Positions 2,820 to 43,089 of a stretch of DNA of 54,266 bases are shown one piece after another; position 1 is the first letter of the stretch; each line of letters starts with the position of its first letter. The notes under the pieces are model-generated. The model had not been told where the DNA came from. It searched no databases and worked only from the letters and a program-made list of their open reading frames with translations. Source of the DNA: Candidatus Uhrbacteria bacterium (GTDB lineage: Bacteria; Patescibacteriota; Patescibacteriia; JACQRZ01); contig JACQSC010000001.1 in the NCBI GenBank assembly GCA_016206155.1, forward strand, positions 71,105 to 125,370, written 5' to 3'. The position numbers were made by a program, and so were the translations under genes.

Positions 2820-3217
2820 GGAAGCAAAACGCAAAACAATTTGCCTCTGCGCTTCGAGCATTGACGCGGGGAAAGAAAAAAAGTGAAATAGACACAATCG
2901 TTCGCTCGGTTGTAGGGCGTTACGGCGTTACCGGACAGATGAAGTTTCTTGCTCGCGTCTGGCACCAACTCCACGATATTTTGAATAGTGAGAAGGGGGT
3001 GGCGCGCGTTGCGGTCCGCGTTCCATCCTGCGATAAAAAGCGCAATCGAGCGTTGACCGGACAAATTGCAAAACAGGTCGGTCGCGACAGTGAGATTTCC
3101 ATCACAGAAGACCCCTCGCTCATTGCCGGCGCTGTTGTGACAGTAGGTGATAAGCGTTACGACGGCAGCGTTAAGGCGCGAATACGGCAGTTGAGGAAAC
3201 ACCTTCAAAGGAATTAA
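2816..3217 (+). CDS. atpH: F0F1 ATP synthase subunit delta (OSCP), short form
   Basis: 133 aa with an ATGA overlap onto atpF. The C-terminal IAGAVVTVGDKRYDGSVKARIRQL matches the OSCP signature region. The stop TAA lies inside the first GAATTAA heptad. Confidence 0.85.
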   Translation: MRKQNAKQFASALRALTRGKKKSEIDTIVRSVVGRYGVTGQMKFLARVWHQLHDILNSEKGVARVAVRVPSCDKKRNRALTGQIAKQVGRDSEISITEDPSLIAGAVVTVGDKRYDGSVKARIRQLRKHLQRN

Positions 3218-3291
3218 GAATTATGAATTAAGAATTAAGCATGTTTAAACATCGTATCCTTGATTCTTAATTCGTAATTCTTTATTCTTCG
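3211..3291. repeat. heptad-array hairpin: (GAATTAA)x4, then (TTAATTC-type)x4
   Basis: gaattaagaattatgaattaagaattaagc ... ccttgattcttaattcgtaattctttattcttcg. It contains the atpH stop codon. Confidence 0.9.
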
Positions 3292-4872: not shown

Positions 4873-4942
4873 CTCGTAATCCGTAACTCGTAACTCGTAA
4901 AAAAATCATTACGGATTACGGATTACGGATTACGGATTACGA
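4873..4942. repeat. heptad-array hairpin: (CTCGTAA/TCCGTAA)x4, then (TTACGGA)x5
   Basis: ctcgtaatccgtaactcgtaactcgtaa aaaaatca ttacggattacggattacggattacggattacga. It starts 3 nt after the atpA stop and ends 3 nt before the atpG ATG. Confidence 0.9.
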
Positions 4943-4945
4943 TGT

Positions 4946-5871
4946 ATGAAAGGAACGTTACAGATACGCCGCCAGATCCGCTCAATCGGAAATACCAAAA
5001 AGATGACAAAGGCGATGGAGCTGGTATCTGCCGCAAAGATGCGAAAAGCGATTGTGGCGGTACTTGCGACCCGTCCGTATGCGACCTTTGCTCAGGATGT
5101 TTTGCGGTTTCTTGCCTCGCGTACCGTCGATGCGTCACGTCATCCGTTGCTTGAGGTGCGTGCCTTGCGCAAAGCGGGGTTTATCGTCATCAGTACGAAC
5201 AGGGGGCTGTGTGGTAGCTTCAACGCAACCCTGGCATCAACCGTGCGCCACGAAGTGACGCGCGCGAAAGAAGATGGCGCATCTTCCAGCGAGGCGCTGA
5301 GCATGGGCAAACGAGCACGTGACATTCTCGCCCGATCCGGGTTAAAGATTAGCGCTGATTTTTTAAAAAAAGACATGACGACAAGCATCATTGATGTATT
5401 GCCGCTTGCGCACACCATTATCGAGCGGTACGGAAAGGGCAACCTTGATCGTGTGTATGTGGCGTATACCGACTATATTTCATCCGTTAAGCAAAAACCT
5501 GTGTGTAAGCAATTACTCCCGCTTGAATTGGGGTCTGGCTCAGTTTCGCAAAGCGAATCTGTGCCTGACCCCAATTCAGTGTTACCAAGCTCCGAGGGCA
5601 GACATAAAGAATTTGCCGGCACGCTGTTCGAACCATCAGAAACTCAAGTACTCTCCTATGTTATACCTCGTCTTCTCGAGGTTCAGCTGTATCAGGCGGT
5701 GCTGGAGTCAGAGGCATCGGAGCACAGCGCGCGCATGCTTGCCATGCACAATGCCTCTGAGGCCGCAACTGATATTCTCTCTGAGCTCCGATTGGCCTAT
5801 AACCAGATTCGCCAGGCGGGCATTACGCAGGAGATCGCTGAGATCTCGAGCGGCAGAGCCGCGCTGGAATA

Positions 5872-5872
<1 letters not shown>
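4946..5872 (+). CDS. atpG: F0F1 ATP synthase subunit gamma
   Basis: 308 aa. The N-terminal IRRQIRSIGNTKKMTKAMELVSAAKMRKA and the C-terminal LAYNQIRQAGITQEIAEISSG are both gamma hallmarks. Confidence 0.95.
5525..5577. repeat. 53-nt imperfect palindrome translated in frame inside atpG (copy A of a palindromic element family)
   Basis: GAATTGGGGTCTGGCTCAGTTTCGC AAA GCGAATCTGTGCCTGACCCCAATTC. 22 of 25 arm positions pair, with three T:T mismatches. It encodes ELGSGSVSQSESVPDPN. Confidence 0.85.
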
Positions 5873-7375
<1,503 letters not shown>

Positions 7376-8418: not shown

Positions 8419-8988
8419 ATGGATAAAGAAAAAACAGTGAAAAAGATCCAGCAGTTTTATCAAAAGAGAAAGCGCATGCCCAGCTTTTCAGAAGTTGCAG
8501 AACTCATTGGGTATAAGTCAAAGAACGCGGTCAGTAAGCTTGTGGATAAGTTAGTTGAGCGAGAACTTCTTTCAAAAGACGAGCAGGGAAGACTTTTGCC
8601 CGGGCGGCTCATGCGGGGGGTGCAGGTGTTGGGGACCGTAGCTGCGGGTTTTCCTTCACCGGCAGAAGAGGAGTTGTGCGATACGTTAAGCCTCGATGAA
8701 TGGCTCGTCCCGCACCGTGAAGCAACGTTTCTTTTGAAGGTGACCGGAGACTCCATGCAAGATGCGGGGATTGTTGATGGGGATATGGTGCTTGCGGAGC
8801 GAGGGTGTCAGCCGCGATCGGGTGATATCGTTATCGCCGAGATCGATCACGAGTGGACTATGAAATATTTTGTCCGCGATGGCGCGAAGGTCGTCCTTCG
8901 GCCAGGAAACACAAAGTATCCCGTCCTTGTTCCGCGATGCGAACTGAAAATCGCGGCCATTGTCCGCGGGGTGATTCGAAAGTATTAA
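8419..8988 (+). CDS. lexA: LexA repressor (S24 peptidase)
   Basis: N-terminal winged HTH, Ala-Gly cleavage site (VAAGFPSP), catalytic Ser in TGDSM and Lys in WTMKYF. Confidence 0.9.
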   Translation: MDKEKTVKKIQQFYQKRKRMPSFSEVAELIGYKSKNAVSKLVDKLVERELLSKDEQGRLLPGRLMRGVQVLGTVAAGFPSPAEEELCDTLSLDEWLVPHREATFLLKVTGDSMQDAGIVDGDMVLAERGCQPRSGDIVIAEIDHEWTMKYFVRDGAKVVLRPGNTKYPVLVPRCELKIAAIVRGVIRKY

Positions 8989-8999
8989 GTTTGCCATGT

Positions 9000-9338
9000 A
9001 TGGTCGTTGCCTTTTTTGATAAAAGTATAGAAGAATTTGTCGAGGGTTTTGAAAAACCAATCCGCTCTCGTATAGCGCGGACGATTATGCTTCTTGAACG
9101 GTTTGGAAATCGTATCACCATGCCTTACAGCAAAAATGTCGAACATAATTTATTTGAGTTGAGAACCATGGGAAATCCTGCTATACGGATATTTTATACA
9201 TTCCACGGTAGTTGTGCCGTTCTTTTGTGTGGGTATATCAAAAAATATCAGAAGATTCCGCGAAAGGAATTTTTACTTGCTATTAAGAAGCTACATCTCT
9301 TGACAGAATATAACGTAAACGTTATATTCAGAACATAA
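9000..9338 (+). CDS. higB: HigB/Gp49-type (RelE/ParE superfamily) toxin
   Basis: 112 aa from the ATG at 9000. The longer track ORF from 8853 overlaps lexA. The gene precedes an XRE antitoxin, which is the HigBA order. Confidence 0.7.
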   Translation: MVVAFFDKSIEEFVEGFEKPIRSRIARTIMLLERFGNRITMPYSKNVEHNLFELRTMGNPAIRIFYTFHGSCAVLLCGYIKKYQKIPRKEFLLAIKKLHLLTEYNVNVIFRT

Positions 9339-9357
9339 TCAATAATAGCATACTTAT

Positions 9358-9678
9358 ATGCGTTTTCGTTCATTCGCAGTATTTAAGAAGAAGCTTTTAA
9401 AGGATAAAGCATTTCGGAAAGAGTATGAGAAATTAGAGCCAGAATTTGAGCTTGCTTGCAAGCTTATTGAAAAACGAATTCAGCGTGGATTGAGCCAGGA
9501 AGCTCTGGCAAAAAAGATGAATACGAAGCAATCCGCGATTGCGCGGCTTGAATCAGGCTCCTATAATATGACACTTGCATTTCTTGATAAAGCGGCAAAG
9601 GCCCTTGATACACGCGTTGCGATTTCATTGGTTGATAAGCCACGCGCGAGAACTGCCGCTCCGCATTCTGTACGATGA
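9358..9678 (+). CDS. higA: XRE-family HTH antitoxin (HigA-like)
   Basis: HTH segment GLSQEALAKKMNTKQSAIARLESG. It lies directly downstream of the toxin gene. Confidence 0.75.
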   Translation: MRFRSFAVFKKKLLKDKAFRKEYEKLEPEFELACKLIEKRIQRGLSQEALAKKMNTKQSAIARLESGSYNMTLAFLDKAAKALDTRVAISLVDKPRARTAAPHSVR

Positions 9679-12001: not shown

Positions 12002-15000
12002 GTGCTTCACAAGAGTTACTAAAAGATTTGAATCAAGAACAATCAACGGCCGTTACCCAAGGGGAGGGGCCGTTGTTGATTGTTGCTGGGGCGGGAACCG
12101 GAAAAACAACGGTCATCACGCGGAGAATCGCATGGCTCATTCTCTCCGGCAAGTGCAAACCCGATGAAGTCCTTGCGTTGACGTTCACGGAAAAGGCGGC
12201 TGGCGAGATGGAGGAGCGCGTTGACCGCCTCTTGCCATACGGGTATGTCAATTTGTGGATTTCGACATTCCATGCATTCTGTCAGCGTATCTTAGAGCGG
12301 CATGGGTTGGATATCGGCGTGCCGAATTCATTCAAGCTTCTTGACACGACGGCCAGCTGGCTCCTTGTCAGAAAGAATCTTGATCGTTTTGATCTTGATT
12401 ATTACCGTCCGCGCGGAAATCCCACTAAGTTCATTCACGCGCTCCTTCAGCACTTTTCTCGCGCGAAAGACGAAGGAATTCTGCCCGAGGACTATCTTCG
12501 GTATGCGCAAGATCAGAAACGGGGACAGTCACCGTTTCTGCAAGAAACGGTGACTGTCCCCGTTTCTGCCAAGCGATCCGAAGAAATTGCAAACGCGTAT
12601 CACATCTACCAGCAACTCCTCTTAGAAAACAATGCGCTTGATTTTGGCGACCTCCTCGTATACACCCGCGAGCTCTTTATGAACCGTCCCGCGATTCTTG
12701 AGCAGTACCGCGCACAATTTAAGTACATTCTTGTCGACGAGTTTCAAGATACCAACTGGATTCAATATACAATCGTGAATCTTCTTGCGACACCCGATGA
12801 CAATCTGACAGTGATGGCGGACGATGATCAGGCGATTTTTTTGTGGCGGGGCGCATCGTATCACAATATCCTTCAATTCAAAAAGGATTATCCGCAGAGC
12901 AGGGAGATATTTCTGACACAGAATTATCGTTCGTGCCAGAATATTCTTGATTGCGCCTATCAATTCATCCAGCACAATAATCCGGACCGCCTTGAATATC
13001 AGTTATCAGAGAAGGGCGGATTGTCAAAGCAACTTCGCGCGCAGCATGAGCGGCAGGGCAGTATTGAACACATTCATTGCACGACGCCCCAAGAGGAGGT
13101 CGCGCTTGTCTGTAAAAAAATTGCAGAGCTAAAAGAAAAAAATGTCGATCTCTGCTGGAGCGACATCGCGATTCTCGTACGCGCAAACGATACGGCAAAA
13201 CCCTTTTGTGAACATCTTCGTGATGCTCATATTCCCTATTATGTTGTTTCCGCTAAGGGATTGTACACAAAGCCCGTTATCATGGATATGCTTGCGTATT
13301 GCACCCTTCTTGTCCGACCGCACGACAGTCCGGCATTCTGGCGAGTGTTGACATGGCCTTTTTATACGTACGCGTCGGCAACCCTCATCGCGCTCTCTCA
13401 CTATGCGCATCGTTGCGGCATTTCGCTCTATGAGGCTTGCCAGAAGGTCGACGCGATCCCCGACATACGCCCCGAGGATCGGGTGGCGCTGAAAGGTCTG
13501 TGCGCTATCATTGAAAAGCATAGTATGCTTGCCAGAAGCGCGCGAGCGGCGGAAATTTTCCTCACTGTGGTACGCGATAGCGGATACCTTGCATATCTTA
13601 AGGATGGTGAAACAGAAGAAAAGCGCGAAGGATTAAAAGTTCTCGATGTATTTTATAAAAAAATTCGCGCATTGAGCCTTGACATGAATGATGCACGCTT
13701 AAAAGACATTCTCGATTGCGTGTCTCTTGAGCAAGAAGCAGGGGAGCAGGGAACGATGCCGCGCCGCGATGACGAGAGTCCTGACGCAGTGCATATCCTG
13801 ACATGCCACAGTGCGAAGGGTCTTGAATTTGACCATGTGTTCATCGTGAATATGGTTGACCGCAGGTTCCCGACAACGGAACGGCACGATGCGATTGAAC
13901 TTCCTGCGGAGCTACTGAAAGAAATAGTGCCGCAAGGGGATGCGCACCTTGAGGAGGAGCGGCGACTTTTTTATGTTGCGCTGACGCGGGCAAAACGGGG
14001 AGTGTATCTCACATCGTGTGAGGACACGGGCACGAACAGGAAGAAGAAACTTTCGCGGTTCTTGCATGAAATGGGGTTAAATGTGGGGTGGGGTCAGGCA
14101 CAGATTTTGCAGTCGCAAAAACTGAGCCAGACCCCAGCTGAGCCAGACCCCATTTCGACCGAAGAGCAAAAACAAAAATTCGGACCTGACACCAATTTTG
14201 CCGTTCTTCCCATTTCCCATGTTTTCAGCTACTCCCAGCTTGCCGCATTCCAAAAGTGCCCTTTGCAGTATAAATATGCGTTTGTCGTGAAGTTGCCGGT
14301 ATTTGGCAAGCCCGCTTTGAGCTTTGGACGAACTTTGCACCTCACGCTGCAAAAATTTTTTGAGCAATGCATTGAGTTGGAGAGAAGGGACCAGCAACAG
14401 CTGTTCAAGAGCGCGGAAAACCTGTATACTGACAATCATCAGGCGTTGCCATCCCTTGATACGTTGTTTGAGCTGTACGATCAGTGCTGGATCGATGAAT
14501 GGTTTTCCAGCAAGCGGCAAAAAGAGGAATACCGCCAACGCGGATGCGATATTCTCAAACGTCTGCATGAGGAAGTGTCGCGTACGCCCATGCGCACCAA
14601 GGCGCTTGAACGTGATTTTATCATCAGGTTTGGGGATTATCCCGATCAGATCACGATCAAAGGGCGCATGGATCGAGTCGATGAGTGCGATGACGGCACC
14701 GTTGAGATTATCGATTACAAGACGGGTACGCCAAAGGACAAGTTGACGCGCGAGGATAAGGAGCAGCTCCTTTACTATCAGATTGCGTCGCAAGAGGTAT
14801 TTGGCGAGCATCCCTCAAAGTTGACCTATTACTATCTTGATGACGGAAGCACGATTACGTTCATTGGGAGCGATGAGGATATCCAAAAACTGCGCAGTAA
14901 AGCAGCAACGATTGTTGGACAGATCAGGGAAAGCACATTTGAGGCGACACCTGGCTGGCACTGCAGATTTTGCGACTTCCGCGATATCTGTGAATATAGA

Positions 15001-21525: not shown

Positions 21526-22658
21526 CAATTATTAGTCCCGTGTTTCCGCCATATCGGAGCGGACAAGGTTCTGTTGCGTATGAAAATGCGCGCATGGCGT
21601 CGCAGGCCGGTATTGAGACAGCGGTGTATACTCCCTGGTATCAAAAACTTCGGACCCAAACACCTCATCAGGAGCGCACGGACGGATTTACCATCCAACG
21701 TCTGCGGCCATTCTTTTCCTATGGCAATGCCGCATGTCTTGTGCAGCTTTTTTGGAAATTGCGATCAGCGCAAACGATTCATCTTCACTATCCCGCACTC
21801 GGCATGGAATTGCCGGTGTTGTTCTGGTCTCTTCTTGGAAAGCGGCTCATTGTAACCTATCACATGGATCTTGTTGGAAAGGGACGGTGTATGCAGGCGT
21901 TCTTTCGTGCGTACTCCGCGCTTTTTCTTCCACTCATTCTTAGCAAGGCCGCAGTACTATTTGTCACCTCCTCTGATTACGCCGAACAATCGTTGCTCCT
22001 GCGTCCGTTTTATAAGAACCTACGAAAAAAAATCATTGAACTGCCCAATAGCGTGGATACGAATATATTCTCGCCCATGGCCCCCGCTCCGATGATTGGG
22101 GAACAACCAATGAATGATTATATTCTTTTTGTCGGTGCGCTTGATGCCGCCCACTATTCAAAAGGCGTGGCCGTACTTCTTGAAGCATGCGCCCGCCTTA
22201 CTGGGTCGTATACCCTTGTGCTTATCGGAGACGGGGACATGCGCGCTCTCTATGAACAGCAGGCGCATGATAGGGGTATTTCTAATCACGTTCTCTTTAT
22301 CGGATCATGCGCGCACGACGATCTGCCGCGTTGGTATGCCCATGCGCGATGCCTTGTACTTCCTTCAACAGATTCGACCGAGGCCTTTGGTATTGTTATT
22401 ATTGAAGCGGGGGCAAGCGGGGTTCCTTCAATTGCAACACGCATTCCCGGCGTGCGGAGTGTTGTCCAAGAGGGGGAAACGGGCTTTCTTGTCGCGCCAA
22501 AAAATGCCATCGAGCTTGCGGAGAAGATACAATTCATACTTTCGCATCCTGACCGTGCACGTTCCATGGGCCACGCAGCACAACGGCGCGTGAATGAGCG
22601 CTACGCCTATGATGCGGTGGGACGAATCTATGTACGCGCCATTACCGGCTGTATGTGA
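21492..22658 (+). CDS. GT-B glycosyltransferase (family 4/1)
   Basis: E-x7-E region EAFGIVIIEAGASGVPSIAT...GETGFLV. The start may be the ATG at 21504. Confidence 0.85.
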   Translation: MVLDMDTAHHLTIISPVFPPYRSGQGSVAYENARMASQAGIETAVYTPWYQKLRTQTPHQERTDGFTIQRLRPFFSYGNAACLVQLFWKLRSAQTIHLHYPALGMELPVLFWSLLGKRLIVTYHMDLVGKGRCMQAFFRAYSALFLPLILSKAAVLFVTSSDYAEQSLLLRPFYKNLRKKIIELPNSVDTNIFSPMAPAPMIGEQPMNDYILFVGALDAAHYSKGVAVLLEACARLTGSYTLVLIGDGDMRALYEQQAHDRGISNHVLFIGSCAHDDLPRWYAHARCLVLPSTDSTEAFGIVIIEAGASGVPSIATRIPGVRSVVQEGETGFLVAPKNAIELAEKIQFILSHPDRARSMGHAAQRRVNERYAYDAVGRIYVRAITGCM

Positions 22659-24756
22659 ATACAACAGCCTTTTCGCTATCAATTTCACGCCATTCGTCAG
22701 CGGTTGCTTTTCCGTCGCGTACGATGATAGGAAAACGGAATTCGTAGTCACGGACCACGAAATAGATTCGATCAACACCGACGATATCCATTGCCCGCGC
22801 CGCCGTTTCTCGCGATGGCGCACGCAGCATCGCGTAGTATTGTTCCGCAAGCGGTGATCCGCTTGGTACAGGATAATAAAAAACCTCACCATAGGCGGGA
22901 ACATTAAAGTAGCGCGCAAAGCCAAACTCGCGGATTGCGGCAGATGCCACAACTTGGTTTGAGAGGACGGCATAATCTCGCCCTCCGGCATCAGCATCAA
23001 TGGCATGAACCGCGTTAATGTCAGTCTGGGAAAGCGTGTAGGCATGAGAGGGGACATAGACATCGTTGCGGGGATAGGAAAGATATAGCCCGGCGGTGAG
23101 CAGTCCTGCAAGCCCGAGCAGTGTAACAAGGCGTATTATTGGAGTGCCATCGCGTATTCGCGAAAGGAGCGTGTCAAGGGTAATTGCGGCAAGTGGGAGT
23201 AGAAAAAGCGCGGCAGCCTCGAAGAGACGCTTTGCATAGTCCTGCTGTTCAAAACCGGCAATCGAATCAATGCGCAGCAGAGAGCCGGTTAAGATACCAG
23301 TGATTGCAATAAAGAGCGCTGAAAAAAGGCATGCCCGGAAAAATGGCTGAGATCGGATCTCAGCCATTTTGGCGAGGATGATGCCGATGAGAGCGAGTAT
23401 TAGAAGGACAAGGTGACCATGATAATGAGCGGCGTATGTAGCGTCGAGGAGCGGGGAAAAGCGTGTTTGAAGCGTGCCTTCAAGCCGTATGATCTGTATA
23501 AGATCGTGAATCGTGGGCAGAGAAAGTGAGAGATGAAACTGCGGTGAGATGAACGCGTTTGCAATAAAGGCGAGAGGTATACTGACTGCGCCCAGCACAA
23601 ACACTCCAGCAGTCATGAGGTGCCGTCGAGCAATGGATGTTGCAAGTATCGCGAGAAAAAAGAGAAGGGGAATACCGGCAAGCGGGTGGAGCATGAGCGT
23701 AAAGAGCGCAAGAGCTCCAACAAGGATCCAGTGGCGGCGATTACGTGTTTGAGCGGCAAACCCACTCGACAACAGGGTAAGAATTGTGGTACCATAAGCC
23801 AGACCCCACGGCGTCGTCATCACGAGGTGCGGAAAGGGGATGATAAAAAAGCAGAGCGCGACGAGGAGCGGATTTTTTACATAGCGTGTGAGCGCCGTGA
23901 CAAGCAGTACCGGTAAAGAAAGTCCGATCACGATCAAGGTGAGCGGCTGATGAACAGACGCAACAGAAAGATCAAAGATTCGCGCAAAAAATGGAATAAC
24001 GGCATATTGGGCAAGATAATAGAATGTTTTTGGCAAAACAGATCCGTGTTCGAGAACCAGTTTTTCCGCGGCGTGATGAATAATCGGATCAAAGCCGAAC
24101 GAAAGCGGAAAGCGTATGAGGGCGACGGAGAGTGAGGTTGTTGTGTGAAGAATGAGGAGTAAGAGCGAGAGCGCAGATGGTATGCCAATCCAAAGAAGGA
24201 CGACCAAAAGAAATGAGGAAAAAAAGAACAAGACAAACATGATTGGCCCCACACCGTCCCAAGGTCCGAGTACCGCGTCTGTTGTTTGCAGGAAATAAAG
24301 ACCAGCAAGAAATGCTATGATGCAAAGGACGTACAGCGAGGAAAACAGAAGCGTATGCGGCCGCAGCGGTAAGGATGGCTGAGGTGAAGAGGGTTCCAAT
24401 GCGGTATGATTGCCAAGACGTGCTGAAAGAAGCGTTGCGGCAAGCACAAGCCAGAGGAGAAGAATGACAATCGGAAGCGAGAGGTCAAAGAAAAAATAAA
24501 TAATGCCGCCAATGCCGCCAATAAAAGAAACCAGTGCCAGAGGAGCGCACAGCAATGCGCGCACCCAGGAAATGCCTGTGCAATTGCGAACAATGAGAGC
24601 GCCAGTTCCCAAAAAATATACCACCGCAACACCGCGCATGATCCCTGTTCCGGTCGCGTCAAAAATGAGTCCGCCAGTGATTGTCACGGCACAGAGTCCG
24701 AGAAGAGAGATGAGAATCTTCATATGATGAGCTTTCCATCCTTTTGTGATCGTCAT
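22642..24756 (-). CDS. large polytopic membrane protein with a C-terminal extracytoplasmic domain (GT-C-like glycan transferase/polymerase is a guess)
   Basis: 704 aa with more than 12 predicted TM helices. It converges on GT4 with a 17-nt overlap. An alternative start lies at 24723 (MKILISLL). Confidence 0.75.
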   Translation of the reverse strand: MTITKGWKAHHMKILISLLGLCAVTITGGLIFDATGTGIMRGVAVVYFLGTGALIVRNCTGISWVRALLCAPLALVSFIGGIGGIIYFFFDLSLPIVILLLWLVLAATLLSARLGNHTALEPSSPQPSLPLRPHTLLFSSLYVLCIIAFLAGLYFLQTTDAVLGPWDGVGPIMFVLFFFSSFLLVVLLWIGIPSALSLLLLILHTTTSLSVALIRFPLSFGFDPIIHHAAEKLVLEHGSVLPKTFYYLAQYAVIPFFARIFDLSVASVHQPLTLIVIGLSLPVLLVTALTRYVKNPLLVALCFFIIPFPHLVMTTPWGLAYGTTILTLLSSGFAAQTRNRRHWILVGALALFTLMLHPLAGIPLLFFLAILATSIARRHLMTAGVFVLGAVSIPLAFIANAFISPQFHLSLSLPTIHDLIQIIRLEGTLQTRFSPLLDATYAAHYHGHLVLLILALIGIILAKMAEIRSQPFFRACLFSALFIAITGILTGSLLRIDSIAGFEQQDYAKRLFEAAALFLLPLAAITLDTLLSRIRDGTPIIRLVTLLGLAGLLTAGLYLSYPRNDVYVPSHAYTLSQTDINAVHAIDADAGGRDYAVLSNQVVASAAIREFGFARYFNVPAYGEVFYYPVPSGSPLAEQYYAMLRAPSRETAARAMDIVGVDRIYFVVRDYEFRFPIIVRDGKATADEWREIDSEKAVVFTYSR

Positions 24757-33796: not shown

Positions 33797-33848
33797 GGAA
33801 ATGGTGTCAGGAATAGTTTTTGCAGAAACTATTCCTGACGCCATTTCC
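33797..33848. terminator. 52-nt palindrome between convergent topA and vapC (copy D, distantly related to copies A-C), a likely bidirectional terminator-like hairpin
   Basis: GGAAATGGTGTCAGGAATAGTTT ttgcag AAACTATTCCTGACGCCATTTCC, an approximately 23-bp stem. GTCAGGAATAGTTTTTGC compares with GTCAGGCACAGATTTTGC in copy C. Confidence 0.6.
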
Positions 33849-35792: not shown

Positions 35793-35800
35793 ACGTTATA

Positions 35801-35885
35801 GAATTAAGAATCAAGAATTAAGAATCAAGCAGAATTGGATCCAGACGGCTCCATTCGTCATTCTTGATTCGTAATTCTTAATTCT
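35801..35885. repeat. heptad-array hairpin: (GAATTAA/GAATCAA)x4, then (TTGATTC/TTAATTC-type)x4
   Basis: gaattaagaatcaagaattaagaatcaagc ... tcgtcattcttgattcgtaattcttaattct. It lies between rubredoxin and peroxiredoxin and overlaps the rubredoxin stop. Confidence 0.9.
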
Positions 35886-36054
35886 ATTCCCCGTAGGGTT
35901 CAAACATGGATTTCGCCACCCCGCACACGGGGCAAATCCAGTCATCGGGAATTTCTTCAAATGGCGTGCCAGGCATAATACCGCCATCGGGATCGCCAAG
36001 CTCCGGATCATAGACATAGCCACAGGGCGGACAGATGTACTTTTTTTTGCTCAT
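35884..36054 (-). CDS. rubredoxin
   Basis: 56 aa, [23 protein letters not shown]...[14 protein letters not shown], with two CxxCG knuckles. It is the only credible part of the 318-aa track ORF. Confidence 0.9.
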
Positions 36055-38974: not shown

Positions 38975-40414
38975 TTACTGTATGGGAGCGATCTCAGACT
39001 GTTGAGCGGTTTGCGCAAGTGATGGCGGGAGGTCGGTGCCCAGAATAATAAGAAAGTCCGCGCCGGAGACCGAGTCGAGCTCCGGAGAATACGGATCATA
39101 AATACTTTCTCCCCTGAGGGTGTCTGCCAGGAATTTTTTTGTCAATGGTTTGTTGCCTTGTGAAAGATCGAAAACAAGTGTTTTTTGGTAGGTTCGCTCG
39201 CGGGCATTTTCGACCGATGCAACCGTAAACTCGTATCGCTTCAAAAGCGCGGCTGTTTTGTTTCCGATGCCATCAAGCGTAGTGCCGTTGCGGATAATAA
39301 CCGTGCTATCCTTGCCGATGGTGCGCATGTCGTCGTCGGGATATTCGGTAAAAATCCGTTGAACTTTCGCCTGAAGCGTCCCAAAGCTGCTATCGCGCGG
39401 GCGTAAGACATAGGCGCCGTCAATCATCTCAGAGACCAGGAGACCATTGACGTCATCATCAAAGACAACCGAAACGATATCGCGATCATCTACTTTCCGC
39501 AAAGCATTTCCCATGGCAAGCAACTGCCACACTTCCATGTTTGTAGATATATTTTCTTTCAGTGTGCCAAGAATCTCGCCTACCTTCTGAGGACGGAAAA
39601 AAAGAGTTGTGGAGAACATCTTTTCCTTTACTGCCGTTATGATTTTTTGCTGCCGGCGGCTTCGCGCAAAATCAGATCCTTCATTGTTGTTTAGGCTGTG
39701 GCGCGAACGGACATACATCAGCGCGCGCTGGCCATCCATTGTTTGCGGTCCGGCGTCAAAAGATATCGTCTGATATTTTTTATCAAGCGTGGGATATTTA
39801 TAGTCGGTAAAACTATTGTCAACCGTAATAGGGATACCGCCAAGAATGTCGACAATATCGGCAAAGCCCTGGAAATCGACGCGAACAAAATAGGGGATCG
39901 AGACGCCAAGGACCTGTTCCACGGTCTTTCGCGCAAACTCGCCGCCATATCCTTCTTGGATCGTCTCGCCAAAGGCGTTTGCGTTGTTTATTTTTCGCCA
40001 GCCATAGCCATCGATTGGTATCAGAAGGTCGCGTGGGATGGAAAAAAAGGCAACGCGTCCGGTTTTTGGCACGATGCTTGCAAGCATAATGGTGTCGGTA
40101 AGGTCTGCGCCCTCATGATTTCCGCCGCCGATGCCAAGAAGGAGCACATTAACGCGACCGTCATCAGAAACGATATCATTGTTTGCGTTCTCGGCAAGGC
40201 CGCGAAGAGGGGGAATGCTGGTGAGCGCATTCCATGTTTGAGAAAGCGCCGACCCTTCATCTTGCGCAGTTTGATATGAGAATACCGCGGTTCCTCCAAG
40301 CAAAAGAAAAAAGATCGAGCAAGCGGTGAGGATTTTTGGAAGAGGGGAGCGGTAGGTTTGGTATGCGGGAAGGATGGTCGGCTTTTTGATCAGGTTAATG
40401 GGTGAATGTTCCAT
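38975..40414 (-). CDS. LytR-CpsA-Psr (LCP) family protein
   Basis: VNVLLLGIGGG...DTIMLASI...FSIPRDL LCP core. The ATG at 40414 (MEHSPINL) is preferred. Its stop abuts the PEGA gene stop. Confidence 0.85.
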   Translation of the reverse strand: MEHSPINLIKKPTILPAYQTYRSPLPKILTACSIFFLLLGGTAVFSYQTAQDEGSALSQTWNALTSIPPLRGLAENANNDIVSDDGRVNVLLLGIGGGNHEGADLTDTIMLASIVPKTGRVAFFSIPRDLLIPIDGYGWRKINNANAFGETIQEGYGGEFARKTVEQVLGVSIPYFVRVDFQGFADIVDILGGIPITVDNSFTDYKYPTLDKKYQTISFDAGPQTMDGQRALMYVRSRHSLNNNEGSDFARSRRQQKIITAVKEKMFSTTLFFRPQKVGEILGTLKENISTNMEVWQLLAMGNALRKVDDRDIVSVVFDDDVNGLLVSEMIDGAYVLRPRDSSFGTLQAKVQRIFTEYPDDDMRTIGKDSTVIIRNGTTLDGIGNKTAALLKRYEFTVASVENARERTYQKTLVFDLSQGNKPLTKKFLADTLRGESIYDPYSPELDSVSGADFLIILGTDLPPSLAQTAQQSEIAPIQ

Positions 40415-40490
40415 AAAAAAACAATGCTCTCGTGAATTGACAGCTGATATGGGTGAGTATACACTAGTGATGCGCGCGACACAAGAGCGA

Positions 40491-40530
40491 GCACCCTTCT
40501 TACTCAGTTTGTTAGAGAATTGCGTTTTCA
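40491..40530 (+). pseudogene. 5' half of a second tRNA-like gene (outer tRNA), degenerate
   Basis: GCACCCT..ACTCAGTTTGTTAGAGAATTGCGTTTTCAC aligns with the D-arm to anticodon of tRNA-Val. The acceptor GCACCC pairs with GGGTGC at 40683-40688. Confidence 0.5.
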
Positions 40531-40546
40531 CCCCGTTAGAAATTTT

Positions 40547-40623
40547 GGGCGTTTAGCTCAGCTGGTTAGAGCGTTGCGTTCACATCGCAAAGGTCACAGG
40601 TTCGAGTCCTGTAACGCCCACCA
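40547..40623 (+). tRNA. tRNA-Val (anticodon CAC), CCA encoded
   Basis: Acceptor GGGCGTT/AACGCCC, D-arm GCTC-AGCTGGTTA-GAGC, anticodon stem TTGCG/CGCAA with loop TTCACAT, T-arm ACAGG-TTCGAGT-CCTGT, and discriminator A plus CCA. Confidence 0.92.
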
Positions 40624-40654
40624 AACGAGCCAATACATTTCTAACGGGGCATGT

Positions 40655-40689
40655 CGCAAAGGTCACTGGTTCGAGTCCAGTTGGGTGCA
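40655..40689 (+). pseudogene. 3' half of the outer tRNA-like gene
   Basis: CGCAA AGGTC ACTGG TTCGAGT CCAGT TGGGTGC A. The T-stem changes are compensatory relative to tRNA-Val. No CCA is encoded. Confidence 0.55.
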
Positions 40690-40694
40690 TAGAG

Positions 40695-40719
40695 ATTTGT
40701 AACGGGGCAGGTCGCAAAG
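40695..40719 (+). repeat. third copy of the 25-nt repeat ATTT(C/G)TAACGGGGCA(T/G)GTCGCAAAG
   Basis: The direct copy is at 40637-40661. An inverted partial copy (CCCCGTTAGAAAT) is at 40531-40543. Confidence 0.7.
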
Positions 40720-40790
40720 TTTATCCGCTAGTTTCTTTGATCCAGATTTTCAAAAAACCTATATCCATTACAGCATGTTGTATTTATTAT

Positions 40791-40846
40791 TTTGTCCAGT
40801 ATAATATGTGTATTGGACAAAATTGGTATTTTTTGTCCAATATAAG
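40791..40846 (+). promoter_or_regulatory. promoter/operator-like repeats upstream of the AAA+ ATPase gene
   Basis: TTTGTCCA-gTATAAT (40791-40805), inverted TTGGACAAAA (40813-40822), and TTTTGTCCAA-TATAAG (40831-40846). Confidence 0.4.
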
Positions 40847-40855
40847 CAAAATAGT

Positions 40856-42133
40856 ATGCTTAAAAACATAGTTTTTGATCAAAAACTGCAAAAAGAGGAA
40901 CTTTTATCTTTTCAGTACATAGCGCGAACCAAAGAGCCATTTGCTAAAAAATGGTTTGATTCAAGTTTGATTAAAGTAGTTCTGGGTCCCAGACGAGCAG
41001 GAAAGTCTATTTTTTCTCTCATGCTTTTAAGAGATCGGCCATTTATGTACTTCAATTTTGATGATGAGGTAGTTGCGGGCATGAGCGGTATAGTTCCCAA
41101 TGAGCTTATGAAGGAATTGCATGCCGTCTACGGCCCTGAAAAGACCGTTCTTTTTGATGAAATACAGAACCTTCCGAATTGGGAGCTGTTTGTCAATCGT
41201 TTGCATAGAGCGGGCTACAATCTTGTGCTTACCGGATCGAACGCACGGTTGCTTTCGCAAGAACTGGCAACGCATCTGACTGGAAGGCATATGCCCATAG
41301 AAATAATGCCATTCAATTTTGATGAATTTCTTAAGGCAAAAAAATTCACACTAGATCCGCAATACGCCTCCTTGCCACAAAAGCGAGGTGAGCTTTTGAT
41401 GCTTATGGATGATTTTTTATTGCGCGGCGGGTTTCCGGAGGTTGTCATCAGTAATCTTAGCGCACATGATTATCTCGAGGTGCTGTTTGACGCTCTGCTT
41501 TTCAAAGATGTGGTTAAAAGGCATAGAGTTAAATTTTCGACCCAAATAGCAAATTTGGGCGGACATTTAATAAACAATTTTGCCAGTTTGTATACGGTGC
41601 GCAAGCTGCTCGAGGTTTTGAATTTAAAGAGCGCCTCTACTACGGAAAAGTACATAAGTTATCTAGAAGAAGCATATCTTGTTTTTTCATTGCTTCGGTA
41701 TTCCCCGAAATCCGTGCAACGCATAAAGTCTCCTCGCAAGGTCTATGCCGTGGATAATGGTTTTGTAAGCGCCAAAGCAATTCAACATTCTCCGGACAAG
41801 GGTAAGCTCATGGAAAATCTTGTTTTTACAGAGCTTGTCAAGCGAGGACAAAAACCGAACAGAGATTTGTTTTATTATAAGACGCGAAATAATCGCGAGG
41901 TTGATTTCGTTTTAAAAAATGGAACAGATGTTATAGAACTCATACAAGTTTGTTACGAATCGATGCGTTCAGATGTAGAGCAGCGGGAAACAAAGGCTTT
42001 GGCTGAGGCGGGTGGCGAGTTGAACGTACAAAAACTCACGGTGCTTACATGGGACGAGAAGAGGGAAATAAAAAAAGACGGCAACGTCATACGAGTTACG
42101 CCCCTCTGGGGATGGCTGCTTGATAAGAATTAG
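40856..42133 (+). CDS. AAA+ ATPase with a C-terminal DUF4143-like domain
   Basis: Walker A GPRRAGKS and Walker B LFDEIQ. The ATG at 40856 (MLKNIVFDQ) is preferred over the track's GTG at 40808. Confidence 0.8.
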   Translation: MLKNIVFDQKLQKEELLSFQYIARTKEPFAKKWFDSSLIKVVLGPRRAGKSIFSLMLLRDRPFMYFNFDDEVVAGMSGIVPNELMKELHAVYGPEKTVLFDEIQNLPNWELFVNRLHRAGYNLVLTGSNARLLSQELATHLTGRHMPIEIMPFNFDEFLKAKKFTLDPQYASLPQKRGELLMLMDDFLLRGGFPEVVISNLSAHDYLEVLFDALLFKDVVKRHRVKFSTQIANLGGHLINNFASLYTVRKLLEVLNLKSASTTEKYISYLEEAYLVFSLLRYSPKSVQRIKSPRKVYAVDNGFVSAKAIQHSPDKGKLMENLVFTELVKRGQKPNRDLFYYKTRNNREVDFVLKNGTDVIELIQVCYESMRSDVEQRETKALAEAGGELNVQKLTVLTWDEKREIKKDGNVIRVTPLWGWLLDKN

Positions 42134-42135
42134 CT

Positions 42136-43089
42136 ATGAAAATATTTATCACGGGCGCGGCAGGGTATATCGGCGTGATGCTTGCGGAACGATTCGCAGA
42201 GCGTGACGATATCGAGGAGATAGTTTGCCTTGACAAGAATCCGATCACGCCCGAACTGTTAGCGCTTCCCAAGATTCTCTATCTGCGCGCAAACACATCA
42301 GATGACACATGGCAGGGAATCGCCGCGGAGCGCAAGCCCGATGTTGTCATTCACTGTGCGTGGCAGATTCGGGAGTTTTATTTTAGGAAAAAGCTTCATC
42401 ATGCGTGGAATATCTGTGGCTCGCGCAATGTCTTTGCGTTTGCTCTCTCTTGTGCACGACATCTGATTTATCTCTCATCTGTTGCGGTGTACGGAGCATA
42501 TTCCGATAACCGTGTCGATAGGCCATTTACCGAAGAGGATCCTATGCGTGAAGACGAATATCTCTACGGTGTTCAAAAAAAACAGTCGGAGCAGGATCTT
42601 TATGATATCTGCCAAAAATCCCTATCGCCAATATGCGCTACGGTGTTGCGCATTTGCTCTGTGGCCGGTCCGCGATACAAAAGAGCCAAAAAGGGATTTA
42701 CTTTGCAAAATTTGCTTGCGCTCCTTCCATTTATTCCTATTGCAAATCAGGAGTGGGGGAGACAGTTCGTGCATGAGGAGGATCTTATGGGAATTATTGA
42801 CAATGTCGCCAACGAGCCCCCTCAGAGCGCCCATCGCGTGTTTAATGTTGCCCCGCCGATGTATCTGCGAGCCAGTGAAATTGTGCACGCATATGGCAAG
42901 CGAGCATTTCATGTGCCAAAAGAACTTGTTCGTCTTGGATTTTTTGTTCTCCGCCATCTCTCGCTTGGCCGCCTGCCCACCTCCCGTGGCGGCTGGCGGT
43001 TTTATGTGTATCCGGTTGCCGTGGACGGGGGGGCGATAAAAGGCATGCTTGGCAATAATTTTATCCAGTCTATTCTCTATAATAGGTAG
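42136..43089 (+). CDS. NAD-dependent epimerase/dehydratase (extended SDR)
   Basis: ITGAAGYIG Rossmann motif and catalytic YGVQK. Confidence 0.85.
   Translation: MKIFITGAAGYIGVMLAERFAERDDIEEIVCLDKNPITPELLALPKILYLRANTSDDTWQGIAAERKPDVVIHCAWQIREFYFRKKLHHAWNICGSRNVFAFALSCARHLIYLSSVAVYGAYSDNRVDRPFTEEDPMREDEYLYGVQKKQSEQDLYDICQKSLSPICATVLRICSVAGPRYKRAKKGFTLQNLLALLPFIPIANQEWGRQFVHEEDLMGIIDNVANEPPQSAHRVFNVAPPMYLRASEIVHAYGKRAFHVPKELVRLGFFVLRHLSLGRLPTSRGGWRFYVYPVAVDGGAIKGMLGNNFIQSILYNR

Follow-up and report, generated by a model that had tools for sequence, protein, structure and literature searches.

Introduction

Transfer RNA (tRNA) genes are classic targets of mobile DNA, and what such targeting is known to leave is an island between a restored tRNA gene and a 3' fragment. 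The sublocations at which tRNA-targeting elements integrate were reportedly surveyed by Williams in 2002. Here we describe a tRNA-Val locus in a 54,266-nucleotide stretch of a Candidatus Uhrbacteria genome (the whole stretch is hereafter called the window), in which an intact tRNA-Val(CAC) gene lies between the two halves of a second, decayed tRNA-Val gene and the inserted segment is closed by a 13-bp inverted repeat.

Several other described systems invite comparison. Phage T4 SegB is a free-standing GIY-YIG homing endonuclease tied to a tRNA gene region; it promotes allele replacement, not nesting. Bacterial 23S ribosomal RNA (rRNA) genes carry helix-bounded intervening sequences, which are tolerated since the host RNA still works. 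In the bulge-helix-bulge motif, both splice sites lie in 3-nt bulges with a 4-bp helix between them. Interrupted tRNA genes are known from archaea, and include bulge-helix-bulge introns, the split tRNAs of Nanoarchaeum and the mobile introns of Thermoproteales (PMC4090602, PMC10714607); rRNA genes of bacteria in the candidate phyla radiation (CPR) carry introns (PMC10714607). Full-text literature searches turned up no paper that describes tRNA genes of CPR bacteria as nested or hairpin-interrupted, the matches being limited to CPR rRNA introns and archaeal split or intron-containing tRNAs.

Results

A complete tRNA-Val gene nested within a split one

ARAGORN finds a single tRNA in the window, tRNA-Val(cac) (Table 1). 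The gene folds into a canonical cloverleaf and scores 72.8 bits against Rfam model RF00005 (gathering score 29), in agreement with an earlier note on this DNA, which had recognized an intact tRNA-Val(CAC) at this position. Its acceptor stem (GGGCGTT/AACGCCC) and T-stem (ACAGG/CCTGT) are both unlike those of the tRNA-like pieces on either side.

The two pieces were compared to a tRNA-Val profile made from 12 orthologous genes. Searches with nhmmer matched the upstream piece to model positions 11–38 and the downstream piece to positions 39–70 (E=4e-4 for the latter), that is, to consecutive parts of the model. The outer acceptor strand GCACCC (40491–40496) is complementary to GGGTGC (40683–40688), giving six of seven pairs with a T7/T66 mismatch as the seventh; the pairing is between these two strands, and neither pairs with the inner gene. 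Because the profile positions are consecutive and the acceptor strands pair mutually, the outer pieces are one split gene, as the note had supposed. The downstream piece comprises the 3' strand of the anticodon stem, the variable loop, the T-arm (ACTGG/CCAGT) and the acceptor strand TGGGTGC plus A; its T-stem is also present in one relative (L106). Covariation between the halves had been claimed for both stems. The claim holds for the acceptor and fails for the T-stem: both T-stem strands lie within the 3' half, so that the acceptor stem alone ties the outer halves together. A repeat finder also recovers both halves as direct repeats of the inner gene, at 83% identity for 40503–40526 in the 5' half and at 93% over 28 nt for 40654–40681 in the 3' half.

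The segment separating the halves ends in terminal inverted repeats of 13 nt that are 100% complementary (13/13). Perfect inverted repeats of at least 13 bp bridging both flanks were obtained in 7 of 200,000 shuffles (chance 3.5e-5). Alignment with intact orthologues (MAFFT) places the break after tRNA position 37, at a 37/38 split, which makes the insertion 40531–40653; alternatively, the split lies inside the anticodon with CA on both sides and the insertion is 40531–40649. Either way, the 119–123-nt insert is almost entirely tRNA. The minimum-energy fold of 40488–40692, treated as RNA, is predicted to be the nested structure (-70.1 kcal/mol, z = -4.05), with a 6 x 5 internal loop between the outer anticodon stem and the 13-bp helix. 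At the left junction, two independent Logan assemblies of other samples have exactly the same bases. The nested layout and its coordinates stand as originally described and are not a product of chance; the same is true of the perfect inverted repeat, and the helix that was said to extend the outer anticodon stem is present in the predicted fold.

A 25-nt direct repeat connects 40637–40661 with 40695–40719 (23/25 matches). No other copy of the 25-mer occurs in the window within 3 mismatches, where zero are expected by chance; the number of direct copies is two rather than the three first reported, the "third" having been the inverted arm. The second copy may have arisen by local duplication, or it may be what is left (the right end) of an older layer. 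The right flank beyond it, TTTATCCGCTAG (from 40720), shows suggestive homology to a relative (L103) that was not recovered by local alignment and is treated as tentative.

The outer gene is the decayed resident of the locus

The nested genes are flanked by a divergent LytR/LCP gene (38975–40414, minus strand) and an AAA_14/DUF4143 ATPase gene (40856–42133). Relatives of the LytR protein belong to CPR/Patescibacteria, the closest named being Candidatus Uhrbacteria at 58% identity. Many of these genomes share an arrangement in which tRNA-Val(CAC) and LytR are divergent, and because it is conserved the locus can be compared across lineages. We did so with the L-numbered loci and with 1.16 Mb of fetched DNA, and LytR identity is given for several of the relatives.

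In two relatives, L107 (LytR ~88%) and L109 (72%), an uninterrupted tRNA-Val(CAC) follows directly on the leader, as far from the promoter as the outer gene is in the window. This gene reads GCACCCT-TA-GCTC-AGCTGGTTA-GAGC-G-[CT]TGCG-TTCACAT-CGCA[AG]-AG, and the outer 5' half of the window has the same start position and the same acceptor strand. The uninterrupted orthologue that the earlier note had suggested looking for is therefore present in both. The TTGACA...TATAC(T/A)CT site and the leader are likewise kept upstream of tRNA-Val in relatives, and the resident promoter would now drive the whole nested transcript.

Against these orthologues the outer 5' half differs by a 2-nt indel and some seven substitutions (~7) in 37 nt. 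Two nucleotides are inserted after position 8; the D-stem is mismatched (ACTC/GAGA); the D-loop has changed from CTGG to TTTG, with loss of G18/G19 (AGTTTGTTA where the orthologues read AGCTGGTTA); GAGCG has become GAGAA; and in the anticodon region TTCACA has become TTTTCA. The outer gene thus lacks G18/G19 as well as sound D and acceptor stems. ARAGORN at default settings made no call on the joined outer halves in ~10 distinct joined variants, and calls them only when the threshold is relaxed to 80–95%. In native context, ARAGORN in intron mode recovers the inner gene alone, and the outer halves have no Rfam tRNA match in 40400–40800 even at E<=10. On the strength of the 5'-half lesions, the failure of the joined forms in ARAGORN and the missing Rfam match, the outer gene is, as far as sequence can tell, a pseudogene; its halves appear functionless and decaying, decay being evident in the 5' half. 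Both the degeneracy of the 5' half (the 2-nt insertion, the D-stem mismatch and the loss of GG from the D-loop) and the conservative interpretation offered at the outset, a pseudogene split by insertion, are upheld by comparison with L107 and L109.

The inner gene is another allele than the outer one. More distant relatives have a resident gene almost the same as it; that of L046 (LytR 58%) differs at just 2 of 74 positions. The anticodon stem TTGCG/CGCAA stays constant throughout the clade and the acceptor varies (GCACCCT, GGGCATT, GGGCGTT and GGGCTCA). The locus is polymorphic even within one 90%-identity LytR cluster: L107 has the 5' part of an intact GCACCCT gene, and L102, L108 and L112 have a D-loop-cut 5' fragment of GGCATT type, a repeat arm and then a TGGGCTCA-type tRNA. 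The arm in L112, ATTTCTCAA, is complementary to the trailer TTGAGAAAT that follows the same tRNA in L103. By these comparisons, turnover of tRNA-Val at the locus is fast.

Table 1. Features of the nested tRNA-Val locus, in window coordinates.
Feature	Position	Strand	Evidence
Promoter-like site TTGACA-17-TACACT of the resident tRNA-Val	40437..40465	+	Conserved in relatives
Outer tRNA-Val(CAC), 5' part, positions 1-37; GCACCCT type, decayed remnant	40491..40530	+	Alignment with L107, L109
Left arm of 13-bp inverted repeat, CCCCGTTAGAAAT; left end of insertion	40531..40543	+	Repeat finder, chance test
Whole cassette	40531..40653 (123 bp) or 40531..40649 (119 bp)	+	MAFFT alignment or direct sequence reading
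Inner intact tRNA-Val(CAC), GGGCGTT type, encoded CCA; presumed working gene	40547..40623	+	ARAGORN, Rfam, L046 comparison
Right arm of inverted repeat, ATTTCTAACGGGG	40637..40649	+	Repeat finder
Outer tRNA-Val, 3' part, positions 38-73	40654..40689	+	nhmmer profile match, repeat match
Second direct copy of junction repeat, ATTTGTAACGGGGCAGGTCGCAAAG; right-arm-like sequence and tRNA positions 38-46	40695..40719	+	Repeat finder

Nesting recurs in other CPR lineages

At least three further CPR lineages repeat the nesting. L008 and L034 (both Falkowbacteria) and L081 present the same order of parts: a 5' fragment, a left arm, an intact tRNA-Val, a right arm and a 3' fragment. One outer acceptor strand is complementary to the other in all three. 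Their arms (CCGCACCTTTTAT, CCCGCCCACCTT and CCCGCCCGC) are 9–13 bp long and differ in sequence. L034 and L081 are split in the D-loop, L008 in the anticodon arm. ARAGORN still calls the joined outer genes of L034 and L081 as tRNA-Val(cac); the anticodon stem of the L008 outer gene is gone. Taking three insertions out of L081 restores an intact outermost tRNA-Val, and L034 has a decayed outermost tRNA-Val with TAC in the anticodon region. The inner and outer copies of L034 are identical in their central regions. In several nested relatives the whole structure is contained in ~1 kb between LytR and a signal-peptidase-like frame (identified by sequence, not Pfam-confirmed). A further locus, L005, was rejected as a clean nested case: arms and fragments are present, but its 5' and 3' fragments are unpaired.

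Perfect bridging repeats of at least 9 bp were found at 4 of ~33 loci, all four of them nested, where chance gives 1.3% per locus. Insertions are precise, falling in the D- or anticodon loops of tRNA-Val genes or remnants, with one that interrupts the T-loop. Some are "empty": near-perfect hairpins of 47–52 nt with ends CCCGCCCG...CGGGCGGG, located at position 21/22. The 1.16 Mb contain six true hairpins with CCCGCC...GGCGGG ends, and five of these are within remnants of tRNA-Val, where they occupy positions 21/22 or 37/38 with no target duplication; most related insertions in relatives have no target duplication either. Every nested locus retains an uninterrupted tRNA-Val, and hairpins were observed in interrupted copies alone; the insertions observed in a live gene are ones that carry a replacement tRNA, and the empty hairpins belong to dead shells. 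To look for hairpin insertions in single-copy tRNAs that are otherwise intact, all inverted-repeat-bounded segments in the 1.16 Mb were deleted in silico and the products passed to ARAGORN; only a few borderline calls arose beyond the nested tRNA-Val loci. Together these comparisons show a process that recurs at this locus in CPR bacteria, with the window as one instance.

Small GIY-YIG genes (PF01541) lie inside the nested tRNA-Val regions of L034 (9160–9546, minus strand) and L048 (5317–5622, minus strand). They are the only two genes of this GIY-YIG family in the 1.16 Mb, and the window has none. The L034 frame begins in the anticodon loop of the decayed outermost tRNA-Val.

Multi-layer tRNA-Val loci were seen in L081 (4003–4355, minus strand), L034 (~8830–9515, minus strand), L020/L096, L090, L023/L097, L086 and L091. 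Their shells are cut in the D- and anticodon loops by G+C-rich hairpins, and in L034 and L048 in the T-loop too; the hairpins often have CCCGCC...GGCGGG ends, lie at positions 21/22 and 37/38 and show no target duplication; L020 also nests a tRNA-Val(GAC). A separate set of tRNA-like genes, on the minus strands of L015 (14381–14564), L019 (5883–6070) and L099 (9749–9945), has normal acceptor, D- and T-arms. A conserved, structured insertion of ~110 nt replaces the anticodon loop, its closing helix covaries among the three genes, and it holds no nested tRNA. The L015 gene has no Rfam match at E<=1; these genes may contain an unknown intron or represent a Y-RNA-like tRNA mimic.

Origin of the nested arrangement

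The reading we favor, and regard as probable, is that a hairpin-bounded DNA cassette carrying a replacement tRNA inserted into the resident tRNA-Val, the outer shell of which is now decaying. The resident tRNA-Val(CAC) is broken in its anticodon loop by a 119–123-bp insertion ending in the 13-bp inverted repeat, and the insertion carries a complete tRNA-Val(CAC) of the other allelic type with an encoded CCA. The inner gene is probably the functional one; its transcription would start at the resident promoter and run across the dead 5' half. If the arms pair as the predicted fold suggests, then the resulting helix may insulate the inner pre-tRNA from the closely similar outer halves, and RNase P together with 3' processing would free the inner tRNA. 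The cassette itself may be the mobile unit. We propose that hairpin-bounded insertions target conserved tRNA loop sequences, that selection in a live gene keeps only those insertions that supply a replacement tRNA, and that dead shells gather empty hairpins; repeated insertion would then build nested layers. Nuclease-driven replacement is a candidate mover, because the only two such GIY-YIG genes lie inside nested loci. A wider possibility, advanced tentatively, is that CPR bacteria harbor undescribed, tRNA-specific, hairpin-bounded cassettes that land in conserved loops and persist in live genes only when they bring a replacement tRNA, with Russian-doll loci and rapid turnover of acceptor alleles as the outcome; the window may be a recent, two-layer example.

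Several observations weigh against the cassette interpretation. The contigs of L107 and L109 end 46 nt into the gene, and the intact orthologues are therefore seen for the 5' part only. The 3' half is far better preserved than the 5' half, for which simple neutral decay offers no explanation, and the second 25-nt copy has only tentative explanations. The cassette boundary is ambiguous by 4 nt, so that a target-site duplication amounts to CA at most, or is absent. Arms differ between lineages and only a short motif (CGGGGCATG) links the window cassette to L008, which does not establish one element family that would include it. A search of the 54-kb window at up to 1 mismatch found the cassette arm in no further copy, as opposed to the multiple copies typical of miniature inverted-repeat transposable elements (MITEs). 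Finally, 38 open reading frames (ORFs) of the window, namely those of 27.7–53.4 kb and most of those of 1–24.8 kb, were scanned with Pfam; none encodes an integrase, recombinase or transposase, and the window has no recombinase, transposase or nuclease able to move the cassette.

The earlier note had invoked serial site-specific recombination at an attachment (att) site. Under this explanation integrase elements at the tRNA have since been lost and att-type partial tRNAs have been left behind. The two 25-nt copies, each ending in tRNA positions 38–46, do constitute a direct repeat; 3' tRNA-Val fragments are common downstream of the intact gene in relatives, GC content drops downstream of the tRNA, and the neighboring ATPase gene seems horizontally spread. 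In a classic attL, however, a native 5' part is joined to a 3' part supplied by the element, and the intact gene should find the match to its own 5' part in the displaced 3' fragment. In the window the two acceptor strands of the intact gene pair together, and the displaced 3' TGGGTGC pairs with the upstream GCACCC, not with the inner GGGCGTT. With the displaced 3' half paired to the displaced upstream 5' half, the layout is one that only literal insertion into the old gene produces; for this pair the acceptor pairing rules out a classic hybrid, and the classic model is disfavored. The attP would be expected to contain ATTT[CG]TAACGGGGCA[TG]GTCGCAAAG. Viral contigs contained neither the 25-nt repeat nor the outer 3' half (0 matches each). 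Neither the absence of an integrase from the scanned ORFs nor the confinement of several nested relatives to ~1 kb agrees with serial integration, and we consider it improbable. The other suggestion made at the outset was an intron-like layout. As a functional RNA of this kind, a bacterial counterpart to the split or intron-containing tRNAs of archaea, the outer halves would be joined after release of the inner tRNA to give two tRNAs from one locus. The interruption is at or beside 37/38, where tRNA introns canonically lie, the predicted fold stacks the 13-bp helix on the anticodon stem of the outer gene, insertions in relatives are precise and within tRNA loops, and the joined outer genes of L034 and L081 are intact by ARAGORN. 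Yet the outer gene of the window lacks G18/G19, has D-stem and T7/T66 mismatches, carries TTTTCA in its anticodon region and fails ARAGORN at default settings in every joined form, and the L008 outer gene has lost its anticodon stem. The predicted junction is an asymmetric internal loop beside a flush helix, not a bulge-helix-bulge. Rfam searches found no intron family in 40400–40800 at E<=10, with group I introns also absent from L034 at E<=1, and neither a splicing endonuclease nor an RNA ligase is among the 38 scanned ORFs, all from the 54-kb window only. That each nested locus keeps an uninterrupted copy, with hairpins confined to interrupted ones, is a further point against splicing, and we judge a functional outer tRNA very improbable.

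It is also possible that no dedicated mobile element was involved: divergent tRNA-Val alleles acquired through natural transformation may have recombined, or repair may have switched templates, with the repeat created or perfected through quasi-palindrome correction. The organism has DprA, alleles with differing acceptors and the same anticodon stem circulate among close relatives, the identical central regions of L034 are what gene conversion would give, and the window repeat is single-copy. Against such accidents is the repetition of the architecture in independent lineages, with precise loop positions and G+C-rich repeat ends, and the existence of "empty" hairpins with the same ends at the same tRNA positions, which argues for a specific insertion process. 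Recombination or repair accidents fit poorly with so repeated, precise and loop-specific an architecture, and are unlikely. Assembly might, lastly, have stitched together two strain alleles of the tRNA-Val locus, which is polymorphic among close relatives and inside whose tRNA the Logan contigs of this population break. Because two independent assemblies reproduce the left junction (5' half, left arm and start of the inner tRNA), such stitching has very little chance of being correct; the unique repeat arms, moreover, belong to neither allele, and unrelated assemblies show the same architecture.

Genomic setting

Downstream of the ATPase gene lies a polysaccharide-synthesis cluster of lower G+C, and GC content falls from ~0.49 to ~0.40 downstream of the tRNA. 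A compositionally distinct island had been said to start at the tRNA; the fall in GC agrees with this, but the first block (40789–43035, ATPase and epimerase) is already in the same place in L048 (LytR 57%), at 78% DNA identity. In the 72% relative, L103/L104, positions 381–1693 hold an AbiEii toxin gene and a neighbor, followed by an epimerase, downstream of tRNA-Val, and the ATPase is absent; gene content just downstream of the tRNA therefore varies among relatives.

The ATPase (40856–42133) is 76–90% identical across many CPR phyla (2873 matches at E<=1e-80), and the LytR proteins of ATPase-bearing genomes are merely 40–58% identical. An operator-like palindrome, TTGTCCAGTATA...TACTGGACAAAA, accompanies it (upstream palindromes at 40789–40845). 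The gene looks like a horizontally spreading, self-contained module. We discarded it as a marker of a tRNA-targeting element, since copies in L110 and L111 lie in unrelated contexts without a tRNA.

Elsewhere in the window, a 704-aa ORF (22642–24756, minus strand) has no Pfam match. Intergenic hairpins at 3211–3287, 4874–4942, 5871–5966 and 35798–35887 carry tandem heptamer-like repeats (AGAATTAAGAATCAAG..., CGTAATCCGTAACTCG...) at several gene ends, and may be terminators or another repeat family. Three near-perfect palindromes of 52–55 nt (12514–12568, 5524–5578 and 33797–33848) have a common, GTTTCTGCAAGAAAC-like centre, and two of them lie inside Pfam-confirmed UvrD-like helicase and ATP synthase gamma genes. 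As a possible cassette family they were rejected: they share only a 7-mer with the cassette arms, in opposite polarity.

Discussion

The recurrence of nesting points to an undescribed way of tRNA gene turnover. Here a whole replacement tRNA lies inside the corpse of the old one as part of a ~120-bp hairpin-bounded unit, which differs from the known island outcome. If the cassette is mobile, then selfish DNA would have a novel means of occupying a tRNA gene and keeping a working copy in place; it would explain why close CPR relatives have divergent tRNA-Val acceptor stems on a constant body, and it would offer a bacterial, DNA-level comparison for the origin of archaeal tRNA genes that are split or contain introns. 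In practical terms, annotation pipelines report the inner gene only and overlook the shells, and metagenome assemblies tend to break at such loci.

The locus shares some features with each of the systems considered above. With archaeal tRNA introns it has in common the site of the break, at 37/38 in the window and in the D- and T-loops in relatives, and a helix beside the break that could hold the halves together. It differs in occurring in a bacterium, in the lack of a bulge-helix-bulge, in a degenerate host gene, in an insert that contains a complete tRNA and in the lack of evidence for splicing. The intervening sequences of rRNA are similarly short, with complementary ends, and sit in a loop of a structural RNA, in the CPR case within a lineage with interrupted RNA genes; in the window, by contrast, the cargo would provide the function in place of a dead host tRNA.

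MITEs, hairpin-forming doublets of repetitive extragenic palindromes (REPINs) and Rickettsia palindromic elements are likewise short and noncoding, with terminal inverted repeats or a hairpin shape; the window palindromes inside the UvrD-like and ATP synthase gamma genes recall the Rickettsia elements found in reading frames. Unlike these elements, the cassette is single-copy in the window, carries a tRNA gene and has no evident target duplication, and the hairpins of relatives are nearly confined to tRNA-Val remnants. As for SegB, the nested loci of L034 and L048 hold a small GIY-YIG gene, consistent with nuclease-driven replacement of tRNA alleles, whereas the window lacks such a gene.

The likeness to tRNA-targeting integrative elements is one of target and consequence: a tRNA gene is broken in a loop, the incoming DNA preserves a working tRNA, and partial copies are left. 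The differences lie in the insert, which in the window is 119–123 bp, supplies a whole tRNA instead of a 3' segment, leaves 5' as well as 3' remnants, is bounded by an inverted rather than a direct repeat and comes with no integrase. The window case belongs with mobile DNA that occupies a tRNA gene while preserving its function, of which it is a clear and recent example.

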